Positions 16,711-25,890 of a stretch of DNA of 25,890 nucleotides are shown here, piece after piece. The notes beneath the pieces are model-generated. The model made no database searches, was not told the DNA's origin, and worked only from the letters and a program-made list of their open reading frames with translations. Origin of the DNA: a virus. The first letter of the stretch is position 1; each line of letters opens with the position of its first letter. Location of the stretch: UHGV virus genome UHGV-0135394. One strand, written 5' to 3'. The position numbers were made by a program, and so were the translations under genes.

Positions 16711-17169
16711 TTATTTCAGGCATTGCGTCCTGATGTATTCCTGCAGGTAGTTAACCTGCGCGGTTATCTTGTCGATTCCACTTCGGAGACGGTAATAATT
16801 GAGTTCAGCATCTGCTGTAAGTCCTGGGCTTTCTCCATCGCCCATGCCGCTGGCTCCGGTCGTTGACTTTGCACAGGTGGCGGCGACTTGCAGGCGCTTA
16901 CGCCCAGCAGAAACATCAGCACGGAGACTTTCGATAGTCGCGTTAGCATCAGCAAGCTCCTTTGTGTATCTTGCGTCGAGTTCTGCTACATCACGTTGAC
17001 GCTTCCGCATGTCAGCGATGGTGGCGTTCGCCTTCTCCAGTTCACTGGCCTTGTTATCGCGCTGCTCTTTGTAGGCGATTGCGTTATCACGGTAATGATT
17101 AACAGCCCATGACAGGCAGACGATGATGCAGATAATCAGAGCGGGGATAATCGCGGTTACTCTGCTCAT
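16711..17169 (-). CDS. Rz: Spanin inner-membrane subunit Rz (152 aa)
   Basis: N-terminal TM helix plus coiled-coil periplasmic domain; close to recalled lambda Rz; follows R with 4-nt overlap. Confidence 0.9.
16764..16955 (-). CDS. Rz1: Spanin outer-membrane lipoprotein Rz1, embedded in the +1 frame of Rz
   Basis: Embedded ORF with lipobox-like ...LLGVSAC and Pro-rich mature region; exact start within the ORF uncertain. Confidence 0.8.
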
Positions 17170-17642
17170 ACCTCAATCTCTCTGACCGTTCCGCCCGCTT
17201 CTTTGAATTTTGCAATCAGGCTGTCAGCCTTATGCTCGAACTGACCATAACCAGCGCCCGGCAGTGAAGCCCAGATATTGCTGCAACGGTCGATAGCCTG
17301 ACGAATATCACCGCGATCAATCATCGGTAAAGCGCCACGCTCTTTAATCTGCTGCAATGCCACTGCGTCCTGGCTTTTGGGAGAGAAGTCTTTCAGGCCA
17401 AGCTGCTTGCGATAGGCATCCCACCAACGGGAAAGAAGTTGGTAACGTCCGGCTGCTGTTGATTTGAGTTTTGGGTTTAGCGTGACAAGTTTGCGAGGGT
17501 GATCGGAGTAATCAGTGAATAGCTCTCCGCCTACAATGACGTCATAACCATGATTTCTGGTTTTCTGCCGTCCGTTATCAGTTCCCTCTGACCACGCCAG
17601 CATATCGAGGAACGCCTTACGTTGATTATTGATTTCCACCAT
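17166..17642 (-). CDS. R: Endolysin, lambda R-type lytic transglycosylase (158 aa)
   Basis: Near-identity to recalled lambda R ([35 protein letters not shown]...). Confidence 0.95.
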
Positions 17643-17949
17643 CTTCTACTCCGGCTTTTTTAGCAGCGAAGCGTTTGATAAGCGAACCAATCGAGTCAGT
17701 ACCGATGTAGCCGATGAACACGCTCGTTATATAAGCGAGATTGCTACTTAGTCCGGCGAAGTCGAGAAGGTCACGAATGAACCAGGCGATAATGGCGCAC
17801 ATCGTTGCGTCGATTACTGTTTTTGTAAACGCACCGCCATTATATCTGCCGCGAAGGTACGCCATTGCAAACGCAAGGATTGCCCCGATGCCTTGTTCCT
17901 TTGCCGCGAGAATGGCGGCTAACAGGTCATGTTTTTCTGGCATCTTCAT
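17626..17949 (-). CDS. S: Class I holin, lambda S-type (107 aa) with dual-start motif
   Basis: Near-identity to recalled lambda S; Met1-Lys2-Met3 dual start (antiholin S107 / holin S105). Confidence 0.95.
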
Positions 17950-18342
17950 GTCTTACCCCCAATAAGGGGATTTGCTCTATTTAATTAGGAATAAGGTCGA
18001 TTACTGATAGAACAAATCCAGGCTACTGTGTTTAGTAATCAGATTTGTTCGTGACCGATATGCACGGGCAAAACGGCAGGAGGTTGTTAGCGCGACCTCC
18101 TGTCACCCGCTTTCACGAAGATCATGTGTAGAAGGCCGCAGCGTAACTATCACTGATGAATTCAGGATAGCCAGTGGCTACGGCTCAGTTTGGGTTGTGC
18201 TGTTGCTGGGCGGCGATGACGCCTGTACGCATTTGGTGATCCGGTTCTGCTTCCGGTATTCGCTTAATTCAGCACAACGGAAAGAGCACTCAATGCATTT
18301 AAACCAAGCCCCATAAAGGAGAATGCTCTTACCTGTTGCACA

Positions 18343-18406
18343 GATATAAAAAATCCCGAAACCGTTATGCAGGCTCTAACTATTACCTGCGAACTGTTTC
18401 GGGATT
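18343..18406 (-). terminator. tR'-like intrinsic terminator of the late leader transcript
   Basis: Long imperfect hairpin (UCCCGAAAC...GUUUCGGGA) followed by UUUUUUAU on the minus strand; matches recalled lambda tR'. Confidence 0.8.
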
Positions 18407-18540
18407 GCATTTTGCAGACCTCTCAGCCTGCGATGGTTGGAGTTCCAGACGATACGTCGAAGTGACCAACTAGGCGGAATCGGTAGTAAGCGCCGCCTCT
18501 TTTCATCTCACTACCACAACGAGCGAATTAACCCATCGTT
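18345..18540 (-). ncRNA. Lambda 6S-like short late leader RNA (pR' to tR')
   Basis: About 196 nt between the predicted pR' start site and tR', matching the roughly 194-nt lambda 6S RNA; sequence close to recalled lambda. Confidence 0.5.
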
Positions 18541-18546
18541 GGGTCA

Positions 18547-18575
18547 AATTTACCCAACTTTATTCAAAAAGTCAA
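18547..18575 (-). promoter_or_regulatory. Late promoter pR' with overlapping Q-utilisation (qut) region
   Basis: Minus strand -35 TTGACT (plus 18570..18575), 17-bp spacer, -10 TAAATT (plus 18547..18552), as in lambda pR', directly downstream of Q. Confidence 0.8.
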
Positions 18576-18617
18576 TATCATGCCGTTAATATGTTGCCAT
18601 CCGTGGCAATCATGCTG

Positions 18618-19241
18618 CTAACGTGTGACCGCATTCAAAATGTTGTCTGCGATTGACTCTTCTTTGTGGCATTGCACCACCAGAGCGTCATACAGCGGCT
18701 TAACAGTGCGTGACCAGGTGGGTTGAGTAAGGTTTGGGATTAGCATCGTTACAGCGCGATATGCGGCGCTTGCTGGCATTCTTGAATAGCCGACACCTTT
18801 GCATCTTCCGCACTCTTTCTCAACAACTCTCCCCCACTGCTCTGTTTTGGCTATATCAACCGCACGGCCTGTACCGTGGCAATCTCTGCATCTTGCGCCC
18901 GGCGTCGCGGCACTACGGCAATAATCCGCATAAGCGAATGTTGCGAGCACTTGCAGTACCTTTGCCTTAGTATTTCCTTCAAGCTTTGCCACACCACGGT
19001 ATTTCCCCGATACCTTGTGTGCAAATTGCATCAGATAGTTGATAGCCTTTTGTTTGTCGTTCTGGCTGAGTTCGTGCTTACCACAGAATGCAGCCATTCC
19101 GAATCCGGCTTGTGATTGCGCCATCCCCATAGCAGCCATCACATCAGTACCGGAAAGAGAGTCAGAAGCCGTAGCCCGTGGTGAGTCGCTCATCATCGGG
19201 CTTTTTGGCGAATGAAATTTAGCTACGCTTTCGAGCCTCAT
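18618..19241 (-). CDS. Q: Late-gene antiterminator Q, lambda-type (207 aa)
   Basis: Essentially identical to recalled lambda Q, including Cys-rich zinc-binding region CRDCHGTG...CGRCKG. Confidence 0.95.
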   Translation of the reverse strand: MRLESVAKFHSPKSPMMSDSPRATASDSLSGTDVMAAMGMAQSQAGFGMAAFCGKHELSQNDKQKAINYLMQFAHKVSGKYRGVAKLEGNTKAKVLQVLATFAYADYCRSAATPGARCRDCHGTGRAVDIAKTEQWGRVVEKECGRCKGVGYSRMPASAAYRAVTMLIPNLTQPTWSRTVKPLYDALVVQCHKEESIADNILNAVTR

Positions 19242-19426
19242 GGCCTTCCCCTTTTGCCCTGTTTGACCATCAGGACGCCGTTAACTATTACGTGACGCTC
19301 GCCTTTGCTGTCTCGGTTGTACTTGAGCACTGTTCCTCTTGCGCAGGAAAGCATCCTCGCCACTTCGGTCTGATTGCCTCGTGTCTGGATAAGAAGCTCT
19401 GGTATCGTTTGAATTGTGGCGTTCAT
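19238..19426 (-). CDS. ninH: NinH-like protein (62 aa)
   Basis: ...GNQTEVAR...CSRGTV...IVN.VLMV matches recalled lambda NinH; ATGA overlap with Q start. Confidence 0.75.
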   Translation of the reverse strand: MNATIQTIPELLIQTRGNQTEVARMLSCARGTVLKYNRDSKGERHVIVNGVLMVKQGKRGRP

Positions 19427-19785
19427 ACGTTCTCCAGTTCGGTGATTTTTATTCCAAGCCTTCCGCCTGGTACTTTCACACCACGAATTACGCGAATGTC
19501 ATCGAATTGCTCGTCGTCTTCCGCAAATCCGGCGTGGATAAGGGAGTCGAGTAAACCTTTCAGGATGTTGTCGAGGTCGCGGCGGCGGGAGTCTGGAACG
19601 TCTGCGATGACTTTGATGCGGAGTCGTGATTTGGTGAAAATGTCTAACTTGAGTTGGCGGATTATTTGCTGTACATCTTCTCGGTATTTCTGGCCTTTAT
19701 CGCTGATGTAGTATTGGCTTCCCCTTCTTCGCCAGTAGGTATTCAGCGACGGTGGGTACGGAAGCACAAACTGATATTCGTTCAT
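19423..19785 (-). CDS. rusA: Holliday-junction resolvase RusA family (120 aa)
   Basis: Length and motifs (LP.PPS.N.Y...RRRDLDN...GGRL.I.I.E) match RusA; ATGA overlap with ninH. Confidence 0.85.
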   Translation of the reverse strand: MNEYQFVLPYPPSLNTYWRRRGSQYYISDKGQKYREDVQQIIRQLKLDIFTKSRLRIKVIADVPDSRRRDLDNILKGLLDSLIHAGFAEDDEQFDDIRVIRGVKVPGGRLGIKITELENV

Positions 19786-20072
19786 GACTTAATCTTCCCC
19801 TCCTTCAGCAGTATCACCTGCGTCCTGATCACGCCTTCGAGGTGGTAAAGTCTGGCGTCTTTGTTGTCGATATTATGGGTGCGTCGGTCGATTTCATCGT
19901 GACACGCGCTACAAGCCCATGCGCCGATCAGGTCGTCAGGCTTCATTCCCGTTCCGCAAATTCCAGCCATCCGGTAATGTGCCAGAACTGTAGTTTCAGG
20001 GTTGCCATTGCATACGCCGTAAATACGTACCTGACATTCTCTGCCGCGCGCTTCTTTGCGTAGATTAGCCAT
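19782..20072 (-). CDS. ybcO: YbcO-like nin-region protein, putative Cys-rich nuclease (96 aa)
   Basis: MA.LRK.ARGRECQVRI.GVCNGNPET.VLAH...CSACHDEIDRRTH matches recalled DLP12 YbcO; GGGGAGG SD 9 nt upstream; ATGA overlap with rusA. Confidence 0.8.
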   Translation of the reverse strand: MANLRKEARGRECQVRIYGVCNGNPETTVLAHYRMAGICGTGMKPDDLIGAWACSACHDEIDRRTHNIDNKDARLYHLEGVIRTQVILLKEGKIKS

Positions 20073-20392
20073 TAAGCAGCCTCCCCGGTTACTTTCAGCA
20101 TTCCGTTATCGAGCAGCTTTCTGGTCAGCCACTGTTGACCACGCCCGGTGATTTTTGTGGTGAACGATATCTGTATTCCGTGATTTGTGTTGACCGCTGT
20201 TTCTTTCACGGTGAAATAGGCGCGATCACTTTCGTCTACTCCGTTACAAAGCGAGGCTGGGTATTTCCCGGCCTTCCTGTTATCCGAAATCCTCTGAAAG
20301 CACAGCGGCTGGCTGAGGAGATAAATAATAAACGAGGGGCTGTATGCACAAAGCATCTCCTGTTGAGTTAAGAACGAGCATTGAGATGGCAC
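20072..20392 (-). CDS. Hypothetical; probably only the 3' part is a real (possibly 5'-truncated) nin-region gene
   Basis: C-terminal ~60 codons look coding and the stop is coupled (TAATG) to the ybcO-like start; N-terminal ~45 codons are low-complexity and overlap the divergent plus-strand gene by 49 bp. Confidence 0.3.
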   Translation of the reverse strand: MPSQCSFLTQQEMLCAYSPSFIIYLLSQPLCFQRISDNRKAGKYPASLCNGVDESDRAYFTVKETAVNTNHGIQISFTTKITGRGQQWLTRKLLDNGMLKVTGEAA

Positions 20393-20535
20393 ATAGCCTT
20401 GCTCAAATTGGAGTCAAGTTTGTGCCAATACCAGTAGAAACAGACGAAGAATTTCATACGTTAGCCGCATCCCTTTCACAAAAGCTGGAAATGATGGTGG
20501 CGAAAGCAGAAGCAGATGAGAGAGACCAGGTATGA
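20344..20535 (+). CDS. Small early-operon protein (63 aa), acidic
   Basis: SD GAGGGG 5 nt upstream of ATG; first gene of a plus-strand operon pointing toward int; stop overlaps next start (ATGA). Confidence 0.55.
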   Translation: MHKASPVELRTSIEMAHSLAQIGVKFVPIPVETDEEFHTLAASLSQKLEMMVAKAEADERDQV

Positions 20536-20615
20536 CAACCACGGAATGCATTTTTCTGGCAGCGGGCTTCATATTTTGTGTGCTTATGCTTGCCGACATG
20601 GGACTTGTTCAATGA
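20532..20615 (+). CDS. Candidate 27-aa hydrophobic micro-protein (MTTTECIFLAAGFIFCVLMLADMGLVQ)
   Basis: Found by manual reading; ATGA overlaps at both ends couple it to the genes on either side; single predicted TM helix; below ORF-track cutoff. Confidence 0.35.
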   Translation: MTTTECIFLAAGFIFCVLMLADMGLVQ

Positions 20616-20827
20616 CACCTCAGCAAGAAAACGCCCTTCGCAGCATTGCCCGTCTGGCTAACTCTGAAATCAAAAAAGCCAGACAGCAGTTTCCGGATAA
20701 AAACGTCGATGACATTTGCCGTAGCGTACTGAAGAAGCACCGCGAAACGGTAACGCTGATGGGATTCACACCGACTCATTTAAGCCAGGCGATCGGCATG
20801 TTAAACGGCGTCTTTAAGGAGCGATGA
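20612..20827 (+). CDS. Small early-operon protein (71 aa); start at internal Met of the 103-aa ORF
   Basis: ATG at 20612 is translationally coupled to the preceding micro-ORF; the upstream part of the ORF-track frame overlaps two other genes. Confidence 0.55.
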   Translation: MTPQQENALRSIARLANSEIKKARQQFPDKNVDDICRSVLKKHRETVTLMGFTPTHLSQAIGMLNGVFKER

Positions 20828-20848
20828 ACATGAAGAGCAAAATCATCA

Positions 20849-20873
20849 GGGAGCTACAGGCTCCTTTTTTATT
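20849..20873 (+). terminator. Short GC hairpin plus U6 tract inside the early operon (attenuator or sRNA 3' end candidate)
   Basis: GGAGC-UACAG-GCUCC (20850..20864) followed by UUUUUUAUU (20865..20873). Confidence 0.4.
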
Positions 20874-20925
20874 GTTCGCATTCACCCTCAAGCGTATTAA
20901 CCAACAATTCAGGGATTAATGGAAG

Positions 20926-21147
20926 ATGGCAGACATCATTGATTCAGCATCAGAAATTGAAGAATTACAGCGCAACACAGCAATAAAAATGCGCCGCCTG
21001 AACCACCAGGCTATATCTGCCACTCATTGTTGTGAGTGTGGCGATCCCATAGATGAACGAAGACGCCTGGTCGTTCAGGGTTGTCGGACTTGTGCAAGTT
21101 GCCAGGAGGATCTGGAGCTTATCAGTAAACAGAGAGGTTCGAAGTGA
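20926..21147 (+). CDS. C4 zinc-finger protein, TraR/DksA-like (73 aa)
   Basis: CCECGDPI...(16 residues)...CRTCASC four-cysteine motif near C-terminus; SD-like GGAAG upstream. Confidence 0.6.
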   Translation: MADIIDSASEIEELQRNTAIKMRRLNHQAISATHCCECGDPIDERRRLVVQGCRTCASCQEDLELISKQRGSK

Positions 21148-21560
21148 GCGAAATTAACTCTCAGGCACTGCGTGAGGCGGCAGTAGCAATTGAAACAGTA
21201 GCAACGCCTCAAAAATTGCTGGCATTTCGTATGAAAGTCACACCTCAGGTTGTGCTGGCACTGCTGGATGAACGGGAAAGAAACCAGCAATACATCAAAC
21301 GCCGCGACCAAGAGAACGAGGATATTGCGTTAACGGTAGGGAAGTTGCGCGTTGAGCTTGAGGCAGAAAAACAGCGGGCAAAGGATCTGTTTATGGAAAA
21401 TGCTCGGCTTAAGTCAGGTATAGCCGGTCTGATACACCTCGGTATTCGATATGCAGATGTTGAGGTCATGAGAATTGCTGGAGATGCCCAGCTTTCTACC
21501 CCATGCACTGACAGCATCATAAACAGCATTGCAACAGGCATTCGCATCAAAGGAGAGTGA
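21144..21560 (+). CDS. Ea22-like early-region protein (138 aa), GTG start
   Basis: Motif LLDERERNQQYIKRRDQENEDIALTVGKLRVELE is characteristic of lambdoid Ea22-family proteins; SD AGAGAGG 6 nt upstream; start overlaps previous stop. Confidence 0.7.
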   Translation: MSEINSQALREAAVAIETVATPQKLLAFRMKVTPQVVLALLDERERNQQYIKRRDQENEDIALTVGKLRVELEAEKQRAKDLFMENARLKSGIAGLIHLGIRYADVEVMRIAGDAQLSTPCTDSIINSIATGIRIKGE

Positions 21561-21561
21561 T

Positions 21562-22230
21562 ATGAGCGCTATAACCAAAGAACGTATCAAATTATTCATT
21601 AAAAATCCGCTTGATAACGGACTTACTCGTGGCGAACAAATGGAACTGGCACGAATTGCACTGGCATCACTGGAACGCGAACAGATTCGCCACGAGCATG
21701 CCAAATGGTCTGACTCCACATTTGGCTGCGTTGGCCCCATTGGTCCGCTGAAACATCTCTCAAAAGAGGCACTGGAAGCCGCAGCCGAACCAGACGATCT
21801 TAGCGAGTGGGCTGATATGCAGTTTCTGTTGTGGGATGCACAGCGCCGTGCTGGCATCAGCGATGCTGAAATTACCGCTGCTATGGAAGATAAATTGAAG
21901 ATCAACATGGAGCGCCAGTGGCCTGAGCCAAAAGATGGTGAGCCTCGCTTGCACATTAAAGAACCCGGCAACTATCCGGTAACTCCGGATGGTTGGATAA
22001 GCTGTAGTGAGCGAATGCCAGAAATGGGAGAGCGACAATGCTATGTGTTAGCAGCTGACTTTAAAAACAACTACCCACCAAACATCCCCAACACTCAGGT
22101 CGGCGTATATGGCGACTGGTTTAATGATGGCAATCCAACTTGGGATGACGGTGATGGCGAAGACCTGTATCTCAAAGAGGTAACCCACTGGATGCCTCTA
22201 CCAGAACCGCCTCGATTAAAGGAGCTATAA
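21562..22230 (+). CDS. DUF551-type early-region protein (222 aa); start at internal ATG with SD
   Basis: C-terminal ...VTHWMPLPEPP signature of DUF551 domains common in lambdoid ea regions; SD AGGAGA at 21551..21556. Confidence 0.7.
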   Translation: MSAITKERIKLFIKNPLDNGLTRGEQMELARIALASLEREQIRHEHAKWSDSTFGCVGPIGPLKHLSKEALEAAAEPDDLSEWADMQFLLWDAQRRAGISDAEITAAMEDKLKINMERQWPEPKDGEPRLHIKEPGNYPVTPDGWISCSERMPEMGERQCYVLAADFKNNYPPNIPNTQVGVYGDWFNDGNPTWDDGDGEDLYLKEVTHWMPLPEPPRLKEL

Positions 22231-22344
22231 TAGTGAACTATTATATCTATTTGTATTAAAAGAGTTTTTATAAAATAAATCTTCCAAAGCATGTAAAAAC
22301 ACTGTTAATCTTAACGTGTGTGAAACGTGAAGAGAGGTGTTGAA

Positions 22345-22626
22345 ATGAGCATTCATGATTTGTGTGAAGATCAAGAGCAATGGGCTATGCAGACCCTTAT
22401 GGGATCAGGAGTTCTTGCAAGGTGCAGAATCCATAACGATGTAATTTTAGACAGCGGAAATGATGCTTCTTCTGCTTATAAATTAGGAACTTACCTATAT
22501 CAAAAAGATAATAGCTGCAACTTATTCAATACTCTTACTGAAGCCCGCGACGCAATAAAGGATGCATATGAATCGTATTGTGGGATTGATGATTGCCCAC
22601 AATGCTCAAAATACATTGACGATTAA
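22345..22626 (+). CDS. Hypothetical Cys-containing moron protein (93 aa) in AT-rich island
   Basis: SD AGAGAGG 7 nt upstream of ATG 22345; region 22230..22900 is visibly AT-rich relative to flanks; followed by hairpin terminator(s). Confidence 0.55.
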   Translation: MSIHDLCEDQEQWAMQTLMGSGVLARCRIHNDVILDSGNDASSAYKLGTYLYQKDNSCNLFNTLTEARDAIKDAYESYCGIDDCPQCSKYIDD

Positions 22627-22646
22627 TAATATGAACAAGTAACTAT

Positions 22647-22700
22647 CCTCGCACTCGCGGGGATTTCTTTTATCTGAACTCGCTACGGCGAGTTTTGTTT
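22647..22700 (+). terminator. Two tandem hairpins with U-tracts after the 93-aa moron gene
   Basis: CCUCGC-ACUC-GCGGGG + AUUUCUUUUAU (22647..22673) and GAACUCGC-UACG-GCGAGUUU + UGUUUUAU (22676..22702). Confidence 0.45.
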
Positions 22701-22714
22701 TATGGAGATGATAA

Positions 22715-22882
22715 ATGCACTTCCGAGTCACAGGTGAATGGAATGGAGAGCCATTCAACAGAGTTATCGAAGCAGAGAACATCAATGACTGCTATGACCA
22801 CTGGATGCTATGGGCGCAGATAGCACATGCAGACATAACCAATATTCGAATTGAAGAACTGAAAGAACACCAAGCCGCCTGA
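22715..22882 (+). CDS. Hypothetical small protein (55 aa)
   Basis: GGAG SD 7 nt upstream of ATG; stop lies inside a terminator hairpin; below ORF-track cutoff, found by manual reading. Confidence 0.45.
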   Translation: MHFRVTGEWNGEPFNRVIEAENINDCYDHWMLWAQIAHADITNIRIEELKEHQAA

Positions 22883-22897
22883 TGGCGGTTTATTTTT
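22874..22897 (+). terminator. Intrinsic terminator between moron cassette and alpA-like gene
   Basis: GCCGCC-UGAU-GGCGGU stem-loop followed by UUAUUUUU. Confidence 0.5.
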
Positions 22898-22912
22898 GCC
22901 TGGAGAATTAAG

Positions 22913-23104
22913 ATGACCGATACCAGCCTGATTCCTGAGAAAGAAGTGATGAACAAGCTCGGTGTTTCATCACGTCAGACAATCTGGAACTATACCAAAC
23001 GGCACGGATTTCCGAAGCCAGTCAGAACCCACCCCAAATCATACCTTCGTGAAGCTGTTGAAGGGTGGATTCTTAACGGTGGCGTTAATCAGAAATGCTC
23101 CTGA
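22913..23104 (+). CDS. AlpA/excisionase-family HTH protein (63 aa)
   Basis: Short HTH-like protein adjacent to a P4-type integrase; 3' end overlaps the integrase 3' end by 20 bp on the opposite strand. Confidence 0.7.
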   Translation: MTDTSLIPEKEVMNKLGVSSRQTIWNYTKRHGFPKPVRTHPKSYLREAVEGWILNGGVNQKCS

Positions 23105-24263
23105 TGTGCCAGAACAATTTATCAGCGTGAAGCTCATACGCTTTGCGCTGAGCCTCTATCCAGTCGTGTTTATTGTATACGGACATTATCCCGCCAAGTT
23201 CATGACCGAGCATTCGCTCAGTAACATGAGGCTCGACATTCATCTCGGACAGACGTGTAACAAGCGTTCTTCTGAAATCATGTGTTCGCCAGTAACCCAG
23301 ATCCATCCCTCCCCTTATTCGATTTACGAATCGGTTGGCTGCAGCGATGCTGATCGGTTTGTTTATGTCTTCTCCAGGGAAAAGAACATCATTGTACGTT
23401 GTCATGGCCTTTTCGAGGAAAGGCTTAATTTGTTCGAAGATTGGACGGCGGATAACATTACCCATCTTGCTATGCTCTTTCGGTACGGTCCATACGTTGT
23501 CCAGCAGGTCAAACTCTGTCTTTGTTGCCAGCCTAAGCTCTGAGAGCCTCGCCCCCCACAGCATAAGCATCTGATGAAGGAGCTTATTTGACGTAGACGC
23601 ACGGCTTCTTTCAATAGCAAGCCAAATCTTAGCCAGTTCGTGATACGACAGTACCCGATCCCCTACCTCAGCGCGGGAGCCGAAGTCCCTTGGTTGGATG
23701 CTCATAATTGCGCAACTATCTATCAACTGACGCCGCATGCACCAACTTATTGCTGATCTTAGTTGACTTAGCACCTGCCTTGCTCGGCGTGGATTATCTC
23801 TTTCTTCTTCGGTAAGCAGGTCAACCCATTGCTTAACCGTGATAGAAGATGCCGGACGATTAGGAAAGGCGTCATGCATGCGCTTCATAACCGTTGATCG
23901 GTAAAGTGCCTGGGTCTTTTCTCTGAGAGTTGTAGAGACGTAGTTGTCGAACCAGTAGTCGAGACACTGGGCGACCGTCATGGAGTTCTCCACCTTCTCT
24001 TCAAAATAAGTGCGTGGATCCGTTCCTGAGAAATAGAGCTTTCGCAAGTCAGCAGTGATCTGTCTGGCATCCTTCAAAGACAGGGATGGGTATCGACCAA
24101 GCCCAAGTCGATTAGGCTTGCCATGCCAGCGATAGCGGTACTGGAACTGGATGACCCCCTTCGGTGAAATTCGTACGCTGAGGCCATCGGCATCAGCCAC
24201 TTCTTGTGGGCCAGAATATGGTTTACCATAAATAGTACGCAGTTTTGTGTCGCTTATAGCCAT
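23085..24263 (-). CDS. int: Tyrosine site-specific integrase, P4-type with N-terminal arm-binding domain (392 aa)
   Basis: N-terminal DUF4102-like domain (...GLSVRISPKGVIQFQYRYRWHGKPNRLGLGRYPSLSLKDAR); catalytic signature HDFRRT ... LGHELGG ... SVY near C-terminus; located at the prophage-host junction. Confidence 0.92.
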   Translation of the reverse strand: MAISDTKLRTIYGKPYSGPQEVADADGLSVRISPKGVIQFQYRYRWHGKPNRLGLGRYPSLSLKDARQITADLRKLYFSGTDPRTYFEEKVENSMTVAQCLDYWFDNYVSTTLREKTQALYRSTVMKRMHDAFPNRPASSITVKQWVDLLTEEERDNPRRARQVLSQLRSAISWCMRRQLIDSCAIMSIQPRDFGSRAEVGDRVLSYHELAKIWLAIERSRASTSNKLLHQMLMLWGARLSELRLATKTEFDLLDNVWTVPKEHSKMGNVIRRPIFEQIKPFLEKAMTTYNDVLFPGEDINKPISIAAANRFVNRIRGGMDLGYWRTHDFRRTLVTRLSEMNVEPHVTERMLGHELGGIMSVYNKHDWIEAQRKAYELHADKLFWHIRSISD

Positions 24264-24273
24264 AAATAATATT

Positions 24274-24315
24274 TGGTACGCTCAGAAATAATGGTTTGGT
24301 ACACATCTGGTACAC
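24274..24315. repeat. Three direct copies of TGGTAC(G/A)C in the int-sbcB intergenic region
   Basis: Copies at 24274..24281, 24297..24304 and 24308..24315 (spacing 23 and 11 bp), immediately upstream of the int start; candidate arm-type or regulatory binding sites. Confidence 0.45.
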
Positions 24316-24444
24316 AATATCACATGGACAACAGCGCACAGTAAACAACTATATTTGACGTTCGTAGACATACTCAGGTGAAAAAATGGTTGTTTTTCGA
24401 GTCATAACAGACAGTTAATTAACTACAGTGGACAATGCTAGACA

Positions 24445-25890
24445 ATGACAGGCACAGATAAACAACCTACCTTCCTCTTTCACGATTACGAAACCTTTGG
24501 CACGCACCCCGCGTTAGATCGCCCTGCACAGTTCGCAGCCATTCGCACCGATGACGAATTCAATGTCATCGGCGAACCCGAAGTCTTTTACTGCAAGCCC
24601 GCGGATGACTATTTACCCCAGCCTGGAGCAGTATTAATTACCGGTATTACCCCGCAGGAGGCACGAGCGAAAGGAGAAAACGAAGCCGCGTTTGCCGCCC
24701 GTATTCACTCGCTTTTTACCGTACCGAAGACCTGTATTCTGGGCTACAACAATGTGCGTTTCGACGACGAAGTCACACGCAACGTTTTTTATCGTAATTT
24801 CTACGATCCTTACGCCTGGAGCTGGCAGCATGATAACTCGCGCTGGGATTTACTGGATGTTATGCGTGCCTGTTATGCCCTGCGCCCGGAAGGAATAAAT
24901 TGGCCTGAAAATGATGACGGTCTACCGAGCTTTCGCCTTGAGCATTTAACCAAAGCGAATGGTATTGAACATAGCAACGCCCACGATGCGATGGCTGATG
25001 TGTACGCCACTATTGCGATGGCAAAACTGGTAAAAACGCGTCAGCCACGCCTGTTTGATTATCTCTTTACCCATCGTAATAAACACAAACTAATGGCGTT
25101 GATTGATGTTCCTCAGATGAAACCCCTGGTTCACGTTTCCGGAATGTTTGGGGCATGGCGCGGCAATACAAGCTGGGTGGCACCGCTGGCGTGGCATCCT
25201 GAAAATCGCAATGCCGTAATTATGGTGGATTTGGCAGGAGACATTTCGCCATTACTGGAGCTGGATAGCGACACATTGCGCGAGCGTTTATATACCGCAA
25301 AAGCCGATCTTGGCGATAACGCCGCCGTTCCGGTTAAGCTGGTACATATCAATAAATGTCCGGTACTGGCCCAGGCGAATACGCTACGCCCGGAAGATGC
25401 CGACCGACTGGGAATTAATCGTCAGCATTGCCTCGATAACCTAAAAATTCTGCGTGAAAATCCGCAAGTGCGTGAAAAAGTGGTAGCGATATTCGTGGAA
25501 GCCGAACCGTTTACACCTTCAGATAATGTGGATGCACAGCTTTATAACGGCTTTTTCAGTGACGCCGATCGTGCAGCAATGAAAATTGTGCTGGAAACCG
25601 AGCCGCGTAATTTACCGGCACTGGATATCACTTTTGTTGATAAACGAATTGAAAAGCTGTTGTTCAATTATCGGGCGCGCAACTTCCCGGGGACGCTGGA
25701 TTATGCCGAGCAGCAACGCTGGCTGGAGCACCGCCGCCAGGTCTTCACGCCAGAGTTTTTACAAGGCTATGCAGAAGAGATTCAGATGCTGGCGCAGCAG
25801 TATGCCGACGATAAAGAAAAAGTGGCGCTGTTAAAAGCGCTTTGGCAGTACGCGGACAAAAGCAGCACTGGCAGAAATGGCCAGCGGCGA
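24445..25890 (+). CDS. sbcB: Exodeoxyribonuclease I (3'-to-5' ssDNA exonuclease), 3'-partial at window end
   Basis: Translation from ATG 24445 (MTGTDKQPTFLFHDYETFGTHPALDRPAQFAAIRTD...) is near-identical to enterobacterial ExoI over about 470 residues; ORF runs to the window end without a stop. Confidence 0.93.
   Translation, partial: MTGTDKQPTFLFHDYETFGTHPALDRPAQFAAIRTDDEFNVIGEPEVFYCKPADDYLPQPGAVLITGITPQEARAKGENEAAFAARIHSLFTVPKTCILGYNNVRFDDEVTRNVFYRNFYDPYAWSWQHDNSRWDLLDVMRACYALRPEGINWPENDDGLPSFRLEHLTKANGIEHSNAHDAMADVYATIAMAKLVKTRQPRLFDYLFTHRNKHKLMALIDVPQMKPLVHVSGMFGAWRGNTSWVAPLAWHPENRNAVIMVDLAGDISPLLELDSDTLRERLYTAKADLGDNAAVPVKLVHINKCPVLAQANTLRPEDADRLGINRQHCLDNLKILRENPQVREKVVAIFVEAEPFTPSDNVDAQLYNGFFSDADRAAMKIVLETEPRNLPALDITFVDKRIEKLLFNYRARNFPGTLDYAEQQRWLEHRRQVFTPEFLQGYAEEIQMLAQQYADDKEKVALLKALWQYADKSSTGRNGQRR

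Follow-up and report, generated by a model that had tools for sequence, protein, structure and literature searches.

The window, a stretch of 25,890 nucleotides of viral DNA (UHGV-0135394), is a metagenome contig with a P22-like (Lederbergvirus-type)/lambdoid prophage that adjoins sbcB. The minus strand of the prophage carries the genes for morphogenesis and lysis, Q and the nin genes, the plus strand the exo-xis genes, and the two sets meet at a joint where the 3' end of roi, from the rightward nin operon, stands head-to-head with an orf60a gene, from the leftward pL operon, that has lost its first 10 codons. Rightward of the joint the genes are orf63, orf61, TraR-like, Ea22-like, pyrophosphohydrolase, ea8.5-like, AlpA-like and int, and beyond the integrase gene the prophage ends and sbcB starts at 24445. 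The features concerned are the following.

18547..18575, minus strand: late promoter pR', TTGACT-17-TAAATT, between Q and the holin gene
19782..20072, minus strand: ybcO, an intact YbcO/DUF1364 (HNH-type) nin gene (Pfam PF07102, 3e-44, positions 2-91 of 92)
20072..20227, minus strand: 3' remnant of roi, the last 51 codons and the stop of a gene of 241 codons (blastn, BLASTP and Pfam)
20072..20392, minus strand: chimeric open reading frame of 106 aa with a GTG start, composed of Roi C-terminal codons and the antisense of orf60a and of the orf63 start
20135..20371, plus strand: second chimeric open reading frame across the joint, 78 aa with a TTG start, composed of roi antisense and orf60a codons 11-60
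20217..20227, no strand assigned: the joint, with right-hand homology beginning at 20217 and left-hand homology ending at 20227
20219..20371, plus strand: 5'-truncated lambda orf60a (DUF1317), codons 11-60 and the stop (nucleotide identity, BLASTP and Pfam)
20344..20535, plus strand: orf63 (DUF1382), intact (Pfam PF07131, 1.5e-30, positions 1-60 of 60)
20612..21188, plus strand: rest of the exo-xis block (homology and Pfam)
20612..20827, plus strand: orf61-like gene of the exo-xis block
20848-20866: terminator-like hairpin in the exo-xis block
20926..21147, plus strand: orf73/TraR-like gene of the exo-xis block
up to 21188, plus strand: first 45 nt of an Ea22-like gene, at the end of the exo-xis block
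23085..24263, minus strand: integrase gene, transcribed toward the joint

Homology was searched by megablast among 50,697 phage records and 5,426 complete E. coli genomes. Positions 19780-20227 are 95-97.5% identical in nucleotide sequence to the roi-ybcO-rusA segment of HK97, HK022, CUS-3, E212 and others, and 34 phage records with roi-ybcO-rusA match the same block by blastn. The second block, 20217-21188, is 97.3% identical to lambda 31323-30352 and 99.6-99.7% identical to the E. coli J31 and MB10 prophages, with homology to lambda itself stopping at 21188. Two blocks with 95-99% nucleotide identity to known phages meet at 20217-20227, and on the strength of these identities their abutment is no chance pattern. 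A sequence-only reading of this DNA had proposed a deletion or recombination junction between the nin operon and an early-type operon, to be checked by alignment with intact phages; the alignment bears this out, placing the end of left-hand homology at 20227, with roi and orf60a both cut exactly at the joint (Pfam and BLASTP).

On the left, the first gene downstream of the joint to be complete is ybcO. It is 95-97% identical in nucleotide sequence to its counterparts in HK97, HK022, CUS-3 and E212, and its own Shine-Dalgarno sequence, GGGGAGG, lies inside the roi remnant. The remnant shares 49 of 51 residues (96%, BLASTP) with residues 191-241 of HK97 Roi, which correspond to residues 56-106 of the 106-aa frame, and it shows the same TAATG coupling to a YbcO/HNH gene that is seen in HK97 and HK022. 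Full-length roi is present in HK97 and E212; unlike these proteins, the window's version lacks 190 of 241 residues (1-190), among them the DNA-binding part at the N-terminus and the greater part of the KilAC domain, of which only profile positions 66-106 of 108 are left (Pfam ANT/KilAC, PF03374). The earlier suggestion of a 5'-truncated gene on this strand therefore holds for roi, with 51 of its 241 codons left, and a product so reduced cannot, to judge from its sequence, be a functional Roi.

On the right, the orf60a remnant matches residues 9-60 of the lambda protein at 49 of 52 positions (BLASTP) and spans DUF1317 profile positions 10-60 of 60. It is not a full-length DUF1317 gene with its own start, the ATG and codons 1-10 having been replaced by roi antisense, and exo and everything upstream of it are missing from this side. 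The sequence-only reading had overlooked this plus-strand remnant, which means that a truncated gene lies on this side of the joint too. The adjacent orf63 has its own Shine-Dalgarno sequence, GAGGGG, 4 nt before its ATG and, like its lambda counterpart, shares 28 nt with the 3' end of orf60a. Positions 20217-21188 as a whole resemble the lambda exo-xis region (orf60a-orf63-orf61-orf73-ea22, read from pL) at 97% identity, with the same gene order, the same overlaps and the internal terminator. The window departs from lambda in that orf60a is without codons 1-10, exo and pL are gone, and the integrase and the genes distal to ea22 are not those of lambda.

Two open reading frames cross the joint. 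The minus-strand frame has the extent first reported for it (20072..20392, 106 aa, GTG start), its stop and the ATG of the YbcO-family gene at 19782..20072 overlap in the sequence TAATG, and its overlap with the 63-aa plus-strand gene amounts to 49 bp (20344-20392), again as reported. It is also heterogeneous, as had been noticed; its 5' part is not low-complexity sequence, as had been supposed, and residues 1-55 are the antisense of the orf60a remnant and the orf63 start, whereas residues 56-106 are Roi and are the only part with homologues. An open frame of 106 codons, coupled through TAATG to ybcO, might be taken for a genuine gene in its native arrangement. Against this, the homologues cover only the last 51 residues, which amount to the C-terminal 40% of the KilAC domain, and the remainder is antisense to a conserved gene; an exact-protein look-up found no gene on record with exactly this 106-aa product, a full-length homologue was likewise not found, and the arrangement occurs in no phage record or complete E. 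coli genome. We regard the idea of a genuine gene as barely credible: by its composition the 106-aa frame is an artefact and no gene. The 78-aa frame on the plus strand is probably not expressed as such because no Shine-Dalgarno sequence is visible, and both frames would be accidental products of the joining.

The sequence at the joint is informative about how the two arms came together. The window reads TAGGCGCGATC, as does native orf60a, and native roi reads TAGCCGCGATC, a match of 10 of 11 bases in which the stretch common to the two parents is TAG[G/C]CGCGATC. In longer context, native roi reads ...TTTCACTGTGAAATAGCCGCGATCCATAT... (phage E212, E. coli E2865), native orf60a ...ATATCCGGGTAGGCGCGATCACTTTC... 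(MB10) and the window ...TTTCACGGTGAAATAGGCGCGATCACTTTC.... Position 20220, the sole mismatch, carries the orf60a base, which confines the crossover to T-A-G (20217-20219). Random joining of an HZ41-type parent on the left to a J31-type parent on the right was simulated 300,000 times, and a match in register of at least 10 of 11 bases arose at a frequency of 9e-5. The joint was probably made by short-homology (illegitimate) end joining or by template switching. Short-homology illegitimate recombination underlies the formation of lambda-bio and lambda-gal phages and RecA-independent deletions, and the window resembles such events in that unrelated sequences meet over a short common stretch, 10 of 11 bases in the window and 2-3 nt in the further joints described below. 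It is unlike them in that one end recurs at a single trinucleotide, which would not be expected from microhomology alone.

How much DNA was lost, and which genes, can be deduced from mosaic relatives, none of which carries both arms. The MB10 prophage, which has the same sbcB site, integrase and exo-xis block, holds 10.7 kb between ybcO and orf60a, comprising ninE, ybcN, ren, P, O, ydaT, a cro-like and a cI-like gene, kil, gam, bet and exo. The distance from int to the roi breakpoint is ~12.8 kb in phage E212 versus 2.9 kb in the window, about 10 kb more, and that from the roi breakpoint to the Ea22-region match is 11.4 kb in HZ41 versus 1.0 kb in the window (local BLAST), a difference of 10.4 kb. 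No repressor, cro, O/P or N homologue was found between 20072 and 23085 in the ORF list or by Pfam. The early proposal that the immunity and replication regions had been removed is supported by these comparisons, as both are present between the same points in MB10, E212 and HZ41.

Taken together, these data make it very probable that the joint is the scar of a ~10-kb deletion in a P22-like/lambdoid prophage at sbcB, made by short-homology joining and leaving the stumps on either side silent. Such an event would have removed exo, bet, gam, kil, N, pL, the repressor, cro, pR, the replication genes and ninB-ninF, and the resulting prophage would be unable to replicate or to be induced. A deletion scar in a defective prophage is of a well-known, ordinary kind, and this one adds one more disarmed prophage, with the repressor, early promoters and replication genes gone and the late region apparently intact.

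Two other origins of the joint have to be weighed against an internal deletion. Recombination between two prophages, for example in tandem at sbcB or as a P22-like and a lambda-like element elsewhere in the chromosome, would make the missing DNA larger and partly chromosomal. It draws some support from the fact that no known phage has both arms: the roi-bearing P22-like phages E212 and HZ41 are without orf60a, MB10, the closest relative in the exo-xis and int regions, has HK97-type head genes and no roi, and the sbcB-type integrase region is common to E212 and MB10-type prophages. (HK629 and HZ41 were tried as parents with both arms and rejected, neither having orf60a.) Lambdoid genomes are mosaic, however, and a single parent with both modules would be unremarkable; a single collinear prophage has exactly the gene order and orientation found on the two sides of the joint, and the same architecture, with nin or late genes on one strand meeting truncated orf60a on the other, recurs in many single remnants. 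We therefore consider an origin from two prophages unlikely. The other alternative is an assembly chimera of two phages, and the window is indeed a metagenome contig (IMG 3300045988) whose joint is a singleton in all collections searched. Megablast found it neither in the phage records (50,697) nor in the complete E. coli genomes (5,426), searches of GTDB representatives and JGI metagenome contigs with an exact 33-mer and with a degenerate 35-mer that span it were negative, and its sole match in IMG/VR is the window's own contig, which ends at window coordinate 24263, leaving the joint known from one metagenome assembly alone. Yet a k-mer misjoin is unlikely because the exact overlap between the parents, at most 7 bases (10 of 11 with the mismatch), is too short, far under assembler k-mer sizes; moreover, the two flanks are those of a single prophage at a single chromosomal position, and joints of identical type and position exist in finished genomes, that of E. 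coli K-12 included. A chimera is accordingly very improbable, and we retain the internal deletion as the preferred origin.

It had also been argued that the ~300 bp at the joint must hold whatever promoter now drives ybcO-rusA-ninH-Q, and here the evidence points the other way. A consensus scan detected no sigma-70 site (at least 9 of 12 matches, 16-18 nt spacing) on either strand of 20072-20700, and over 18000-24600 it returned one match, versus 8.9 expected from shuffles, this sole match in 6.6 kb being pR'. A relaxed scan of 19700-21000 yielded only 8/12 matches with poor spacers (15, 18 or 19 nt). Two of these weak matches lie on the minus strand, TTGTGC-15-TATTAT at 20351..20325 and TCAACA-18-TATCGT at 20193..20164, and together with the Shine-Dalgarno sequence retained by ybcO they are what speaks for a fortuitous promoter that now expresses the operon; the spacers of both are non-optimal, however, and the first is native lambda sequence, not made by the joint. 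The genes for Q, holin, endolysin and Rz have open frames with 95-97% identity to functional phages, and since they and pR' are intact in a prophage without a repressor, an active promoter into Q should be lethal to the host. A comparable precedent is the DLP12 prophage of E. coli K-12, whose nin-rusA-Q stump resembles that of the window: according to PMC4118853 (citing Mahdi et al. 1996), the nin/rusA operon there is not adequately expressed until an insertion creates a promoter. On balance, a fortuitous promoter at the joint appears quite improbable.

[quoted passage not shown] Both stumps would be without their native promoters, and we infer that both are largely silent, because no promoter was found at the joint, expression of Q would be lethal, DLP12 provides a precedent and pL has been lost. 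The intact Q-pR'-lysis-morphogenesis block would likewise be silent because nothing would transcribe Q, although read-through from int, which lies upstream on the same strand, or the weak sites mentioned above may transcribe the nin-Q stump.

DLP12 is like the window in a further respect, being a lambdoid remnant without the immunity and replication region in which truncated genes of opposite operons, P and exo, meet. It is unlike the window in its integration at argU, its other break partners and its IS elements, and it retains the exo side of the site discussed below, whereas the window retains the orf60a side and has a P22-like late region that appears intact. A second deletion in DLP12, leading into a xis-like gene, has as its left end the same GGGTA/ site as the right-hand break of the window (a slash marks the break here and below).

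This right-hand break, within the T-A-G of GGGTAGGCGCGATCAC at lambda 31323, is a recurrent site. In lambda, orf60a begins at 31351 in an overlap with the exo stop; position 31323 is 28 nt into this gene, and the break GGGTA/GG (lambda 31321-31323) falls at codons 10/11 of orf60a, 25 nt past the exo stop. The site has the context GGGTAGG(C/T)GCGATCAC, and many prophage deletions end there with 2-3 nt common to the partners. At least 17 different left partners, the window's included, are joined to the identical right arm, in a sampling that was opportunistic and in which the independence of events was judged from differing flanks only. These partners include truncated roi, ydaT, ninB, ybcO (twice), bet, rrrD and tail genes. 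The sequence-only reading had not noticed the recurrence, and a literature search on a recurrent breakpoint at lambda 31323 returned nothing.

Individual joints illustrate the precision of the site. In E. coli 2452 another sequence is placed on the same right arm (...GTGAGATA/GGTGCGATCAC), a joint unique among the 5,426 genomes, and a native copy of its left arm is present in O157 F6667. In E. coli 23AR1217 the partner is a 5'-truncated ydaT (...CCTGATTA/GGCGCGATCAC), and native ydaT at this point reads ...GATTA/TCTGCAG. A protein search with the 78-aa frame as query gave the same picture: 16 different N-terminal peptides are fused exactly before Gly11 of DUF1317, versus 4 variants with a break at another point of the 60 codons. 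Of the 16 variants, 14 have V, I or L (codon NTA) before the joint, and a fifteenth has M translated from an ATA start, a codon of the NTA type as well. Joints to 5'-truncated orf60a were located in DNA as follows.

truncated ninB joined to orf60a: near proA, in ~160 contig blocks
tail gene joined to orf60a: DNA context of a protein variant
ninE-proximal sequence joined to orf60a: DNA context of a protein variant
truncated ybcO joined to orf60a: DNA context of a protein variant
sequence upstream of ydaT joined to orf60a: at the argU locus
truncated bet joined to orf60a: DNA context of a protein variant

A pattern scan of IMG/VR added seven further distinct left flanks, and the only right arms in that collection not preceded by TA were native exo-orf60a sequence with a SNP. 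Every native partner examined has TA at the joint, or AG in one case. Two deletions leave the same site in the opposite direction. In DLP12, exo plus 26 nt ends in GGGTA/ and is followed by CCTCACAAC...; in intact relatives CCTCACAAC belongs to the interior of a xis-like gene (...CCTTA/CCTCACAAC), and the DLP12 structure therefore represents a rightward deletion from this site. A second rightward deletion ends inside intD. Among the 187 phage records with the exo 3' end, 180 have intact exo-orf60a and the rest break at the exo stop codon, none of them at the recurrent site, and wherever orf60a occurs in phage records it comes after exo; the window's own arrangement is similarly absent from viable phages, with 0 of 50,697 phage records spanning the joint. 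At least 17 right-arm and two left-arm joints fall within one T-A-G, in both directions, as would be looked for in site-specific recombination or cleavage, and the position of the right-hand break is non-random.

Defective prophages and mosaic joints are usually ascribed to random illegitimate recombination filtered by selection. As the breakpoint recurs, simple random illegitimate recombination is not the whole story, and some factor would have to favour breakage or joining at the right-hand phosphodiester. The pattern, in which one end is fixed, the other ends vary and are nested in both directions, the core has 2-3 nt and only resident prophages are concerned, is better fitted by a directed process than by a random one. 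We tentatively raise the possibility, which we hold to be somewhat less than even, that a site-specific enzyme or element acting at GGGTA/GG, and not generic short-homology joining, made the window's joint. Either of two candidates could account for it, and it is to the pair of them together that the same guarded expectation applies: a nuclease that makes a double-strand break or a nick at a fixed point and leaves one end protected, or a recombinase that has a 2-bp core and pairs this strong site with weak TA-containing pseudo-sites. Under such a scheme, a site-specific nick or double-strand break, or a recombinase acting in trans, would trigger nested deletions that remove the region from exo to immunity and often the replication, nin and late genes too, the window being one such event. 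Lambda 31321-31323 would then perhaps be a new nucleotide-precise break-and-join site that drives nested deletions in lambdoid prophages.

The numerous left partners on an identical right arm, the two opposite deletions into a xis-like gene and intD, the TA (AG in one) common to every native partner checked, the IMG/VR right arms and the 16 to 4 ratio of the protein survey all argue for an enzyme of this kind. On the other side, no candidate enzyme can be tied to the site; the right arm has neither an inverted repeat nor a transposase, predicted hairpins are no better than shuffles, and the left partners have no common motif beyond (T/A)TA. Int is unlikely to be responsible because the remnants carry at least three different integrases. 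The sampling, moreover, was opportunistic, and the 10/11 microhomology could by itself explain the choice of site in the window. Deletions from transposable-element ends or recombinase quasi-sites are alike in having one fixed end and variable other ends, but they differ from the present case, in which no IS, terminal repeat or transposase is found at the fixed end and no filled site in IMG/VR. For the window itself, a deletion by short-homology joining thus remains the reading that we prefer.

Several specific explanations of the recurrence were tried and set aside. A transposon-like right arm was rejected, there being no inverted copy of 20217-20240 within 20150-24500 and no transposase, and no IS-filled alleles of the site were seen in IMG/VR. 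Hairpin-driven slippage was dismissed on predicted DNA structures with z = -0.46 to -1.35 relative to shuffles. A simple insertion of the block relative to DLP12 was likewise discarded: the DLP12 sequence downstream of the site, which is not in lambda, is the interior of the xis-like gene, and there is no empty site. A left-partner motif, TTTYACNGTGARATA, derived from the roi and 2452 flanks, was dropped because the other 15 partners lack it.

We consider the recurrent breakpoint to matter more than the scar and to be the part worth following. Many independent deletions, in both directions and at unrelated loci, that meet at one trinucleotide and never in viable phages point to a directed process acting on resident prophages. 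If this is true, it could be a major route by which lambdoid prophages of E. coli, DLP12 of K-12 included, turn cryptic; if confirmed, it would account for part of the structure of DLP12 and would offer a concrete, mutable site for experiments on prophage domestication. The site may bear likenesses to the integron core GTTRRRY, the XerC arm of dif, the F-plasmid nic site, lambda cosN, the GTAG of REP elements and the IS621 target, several of which are at odds with where the shared dinucleotide lies.

The right-hand break of the joint, at which a 3' remnant of roi is fused to orf60a, falls on a trinucleotide that recurs as an end point of prophage deletions:

Window 20217-20219 (lambda 31323-31321), orf60a codons 10/11: hotspot, T-A-G within GGGTAGG(C/T)GCGATCAC

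At least 17 independent deletions across the window and the comparison loci end at this hotspot with the orf60a side kept, and two with the exo side kept; each native partner has TA in common with the hotspot (AG in one case). The comparison covers the window and loci L003, L010, L015, L016, L019, L020, L022-L024 and L027-L037. Among phage records, no break at the hotspot was found.

A deletion running from the hotspot (broken after GGGTA) into an xis-like HTH_17 gene (broken after CCTTA, before CCTCACAAC) accounts for the exoD-intD spacer of DLP12, a cryptic lambdoid prophage of Escherichia coli K-12. It took away orf60a-orf63-orf61-orf73-DUF4222 together with the 5' half of xis. The loci compared were:

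L016 2596-2720: E. coli K-12 MC4100, DLP12
L017 3860-3890: E. coli O157:H16 Res13-Lact-PEA12-26
L019 5400-5430: further comparison locus

Elsewhere in Res13-Lact-PEA12-26 (L017 1788-2485), IS1 lies directly upstream of a DUF1317-family ORF, which reads out of it, in the order quuD-IS1-orf60a. This remnant is an IS-associated deletion ending at a gene boundary, not at the hotspot.

On the left flank, native roi carries TTTCAC-T-GTGAAA, a perfect palindrome of 13 nt with its last base 1 nt before the joint (window 20204-20216); in the window, its centre is G. At the matching place in E. coli strain 2452, which has another joint at the hotspot and a left flank unrelated to roi, stands TTTTACTGTGAGA (L007 9775-9790). 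The likeness is absent from the other 15 flanks at the hotspot and is probably coincidental.

Between orf61 and orf73, the window retains the following element:

20848-20866, within 20836-20880: terminator-like hairpin

Together with the adjoining TCATCA...TTTTATTGT, it is the counterpart of the t2/p1 pair predicted between these genes in lambda and phi24B (PMC4195576), with one change in the -10 box. A promoter serving orf73 and the genes distal to it may therefore still be present. Further right lies a two-domain ORF:

21529-22230, plus strand: single 233-codon ORF, dATP/dGTP pyrophosphohydrolase (PF04447) joined with DUF551 (PF04448)

The related prophages of E. coli J31 and MB10 are annotated with only a pyrophosphohydrolase domain protein and only a DUF551 protein, respectively.

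The deletion looks recent. In the late region, pR', Q, holin, endolysin and Rz are intact (window 17166-19241), as are the P22-like morphogenesis ORFs to their left:

18547-18575, minus strand: late promoter pR', TTGACT-17-TAAATT

The prophage is located at the 5' end of sbcB (24445-25890), which starts at 24445 with MTGTDKQPTFLFHDYETFG. The first codons of sbcB appear to be supplied by the prophage. In K-12 the N-terminus is different. Window 1-24263 is IMG/VR entry IMGVR_UViG_3300045988_015114, which identifies the source as a metagenome contig; the provirus call of this contig stops at the int start codon.
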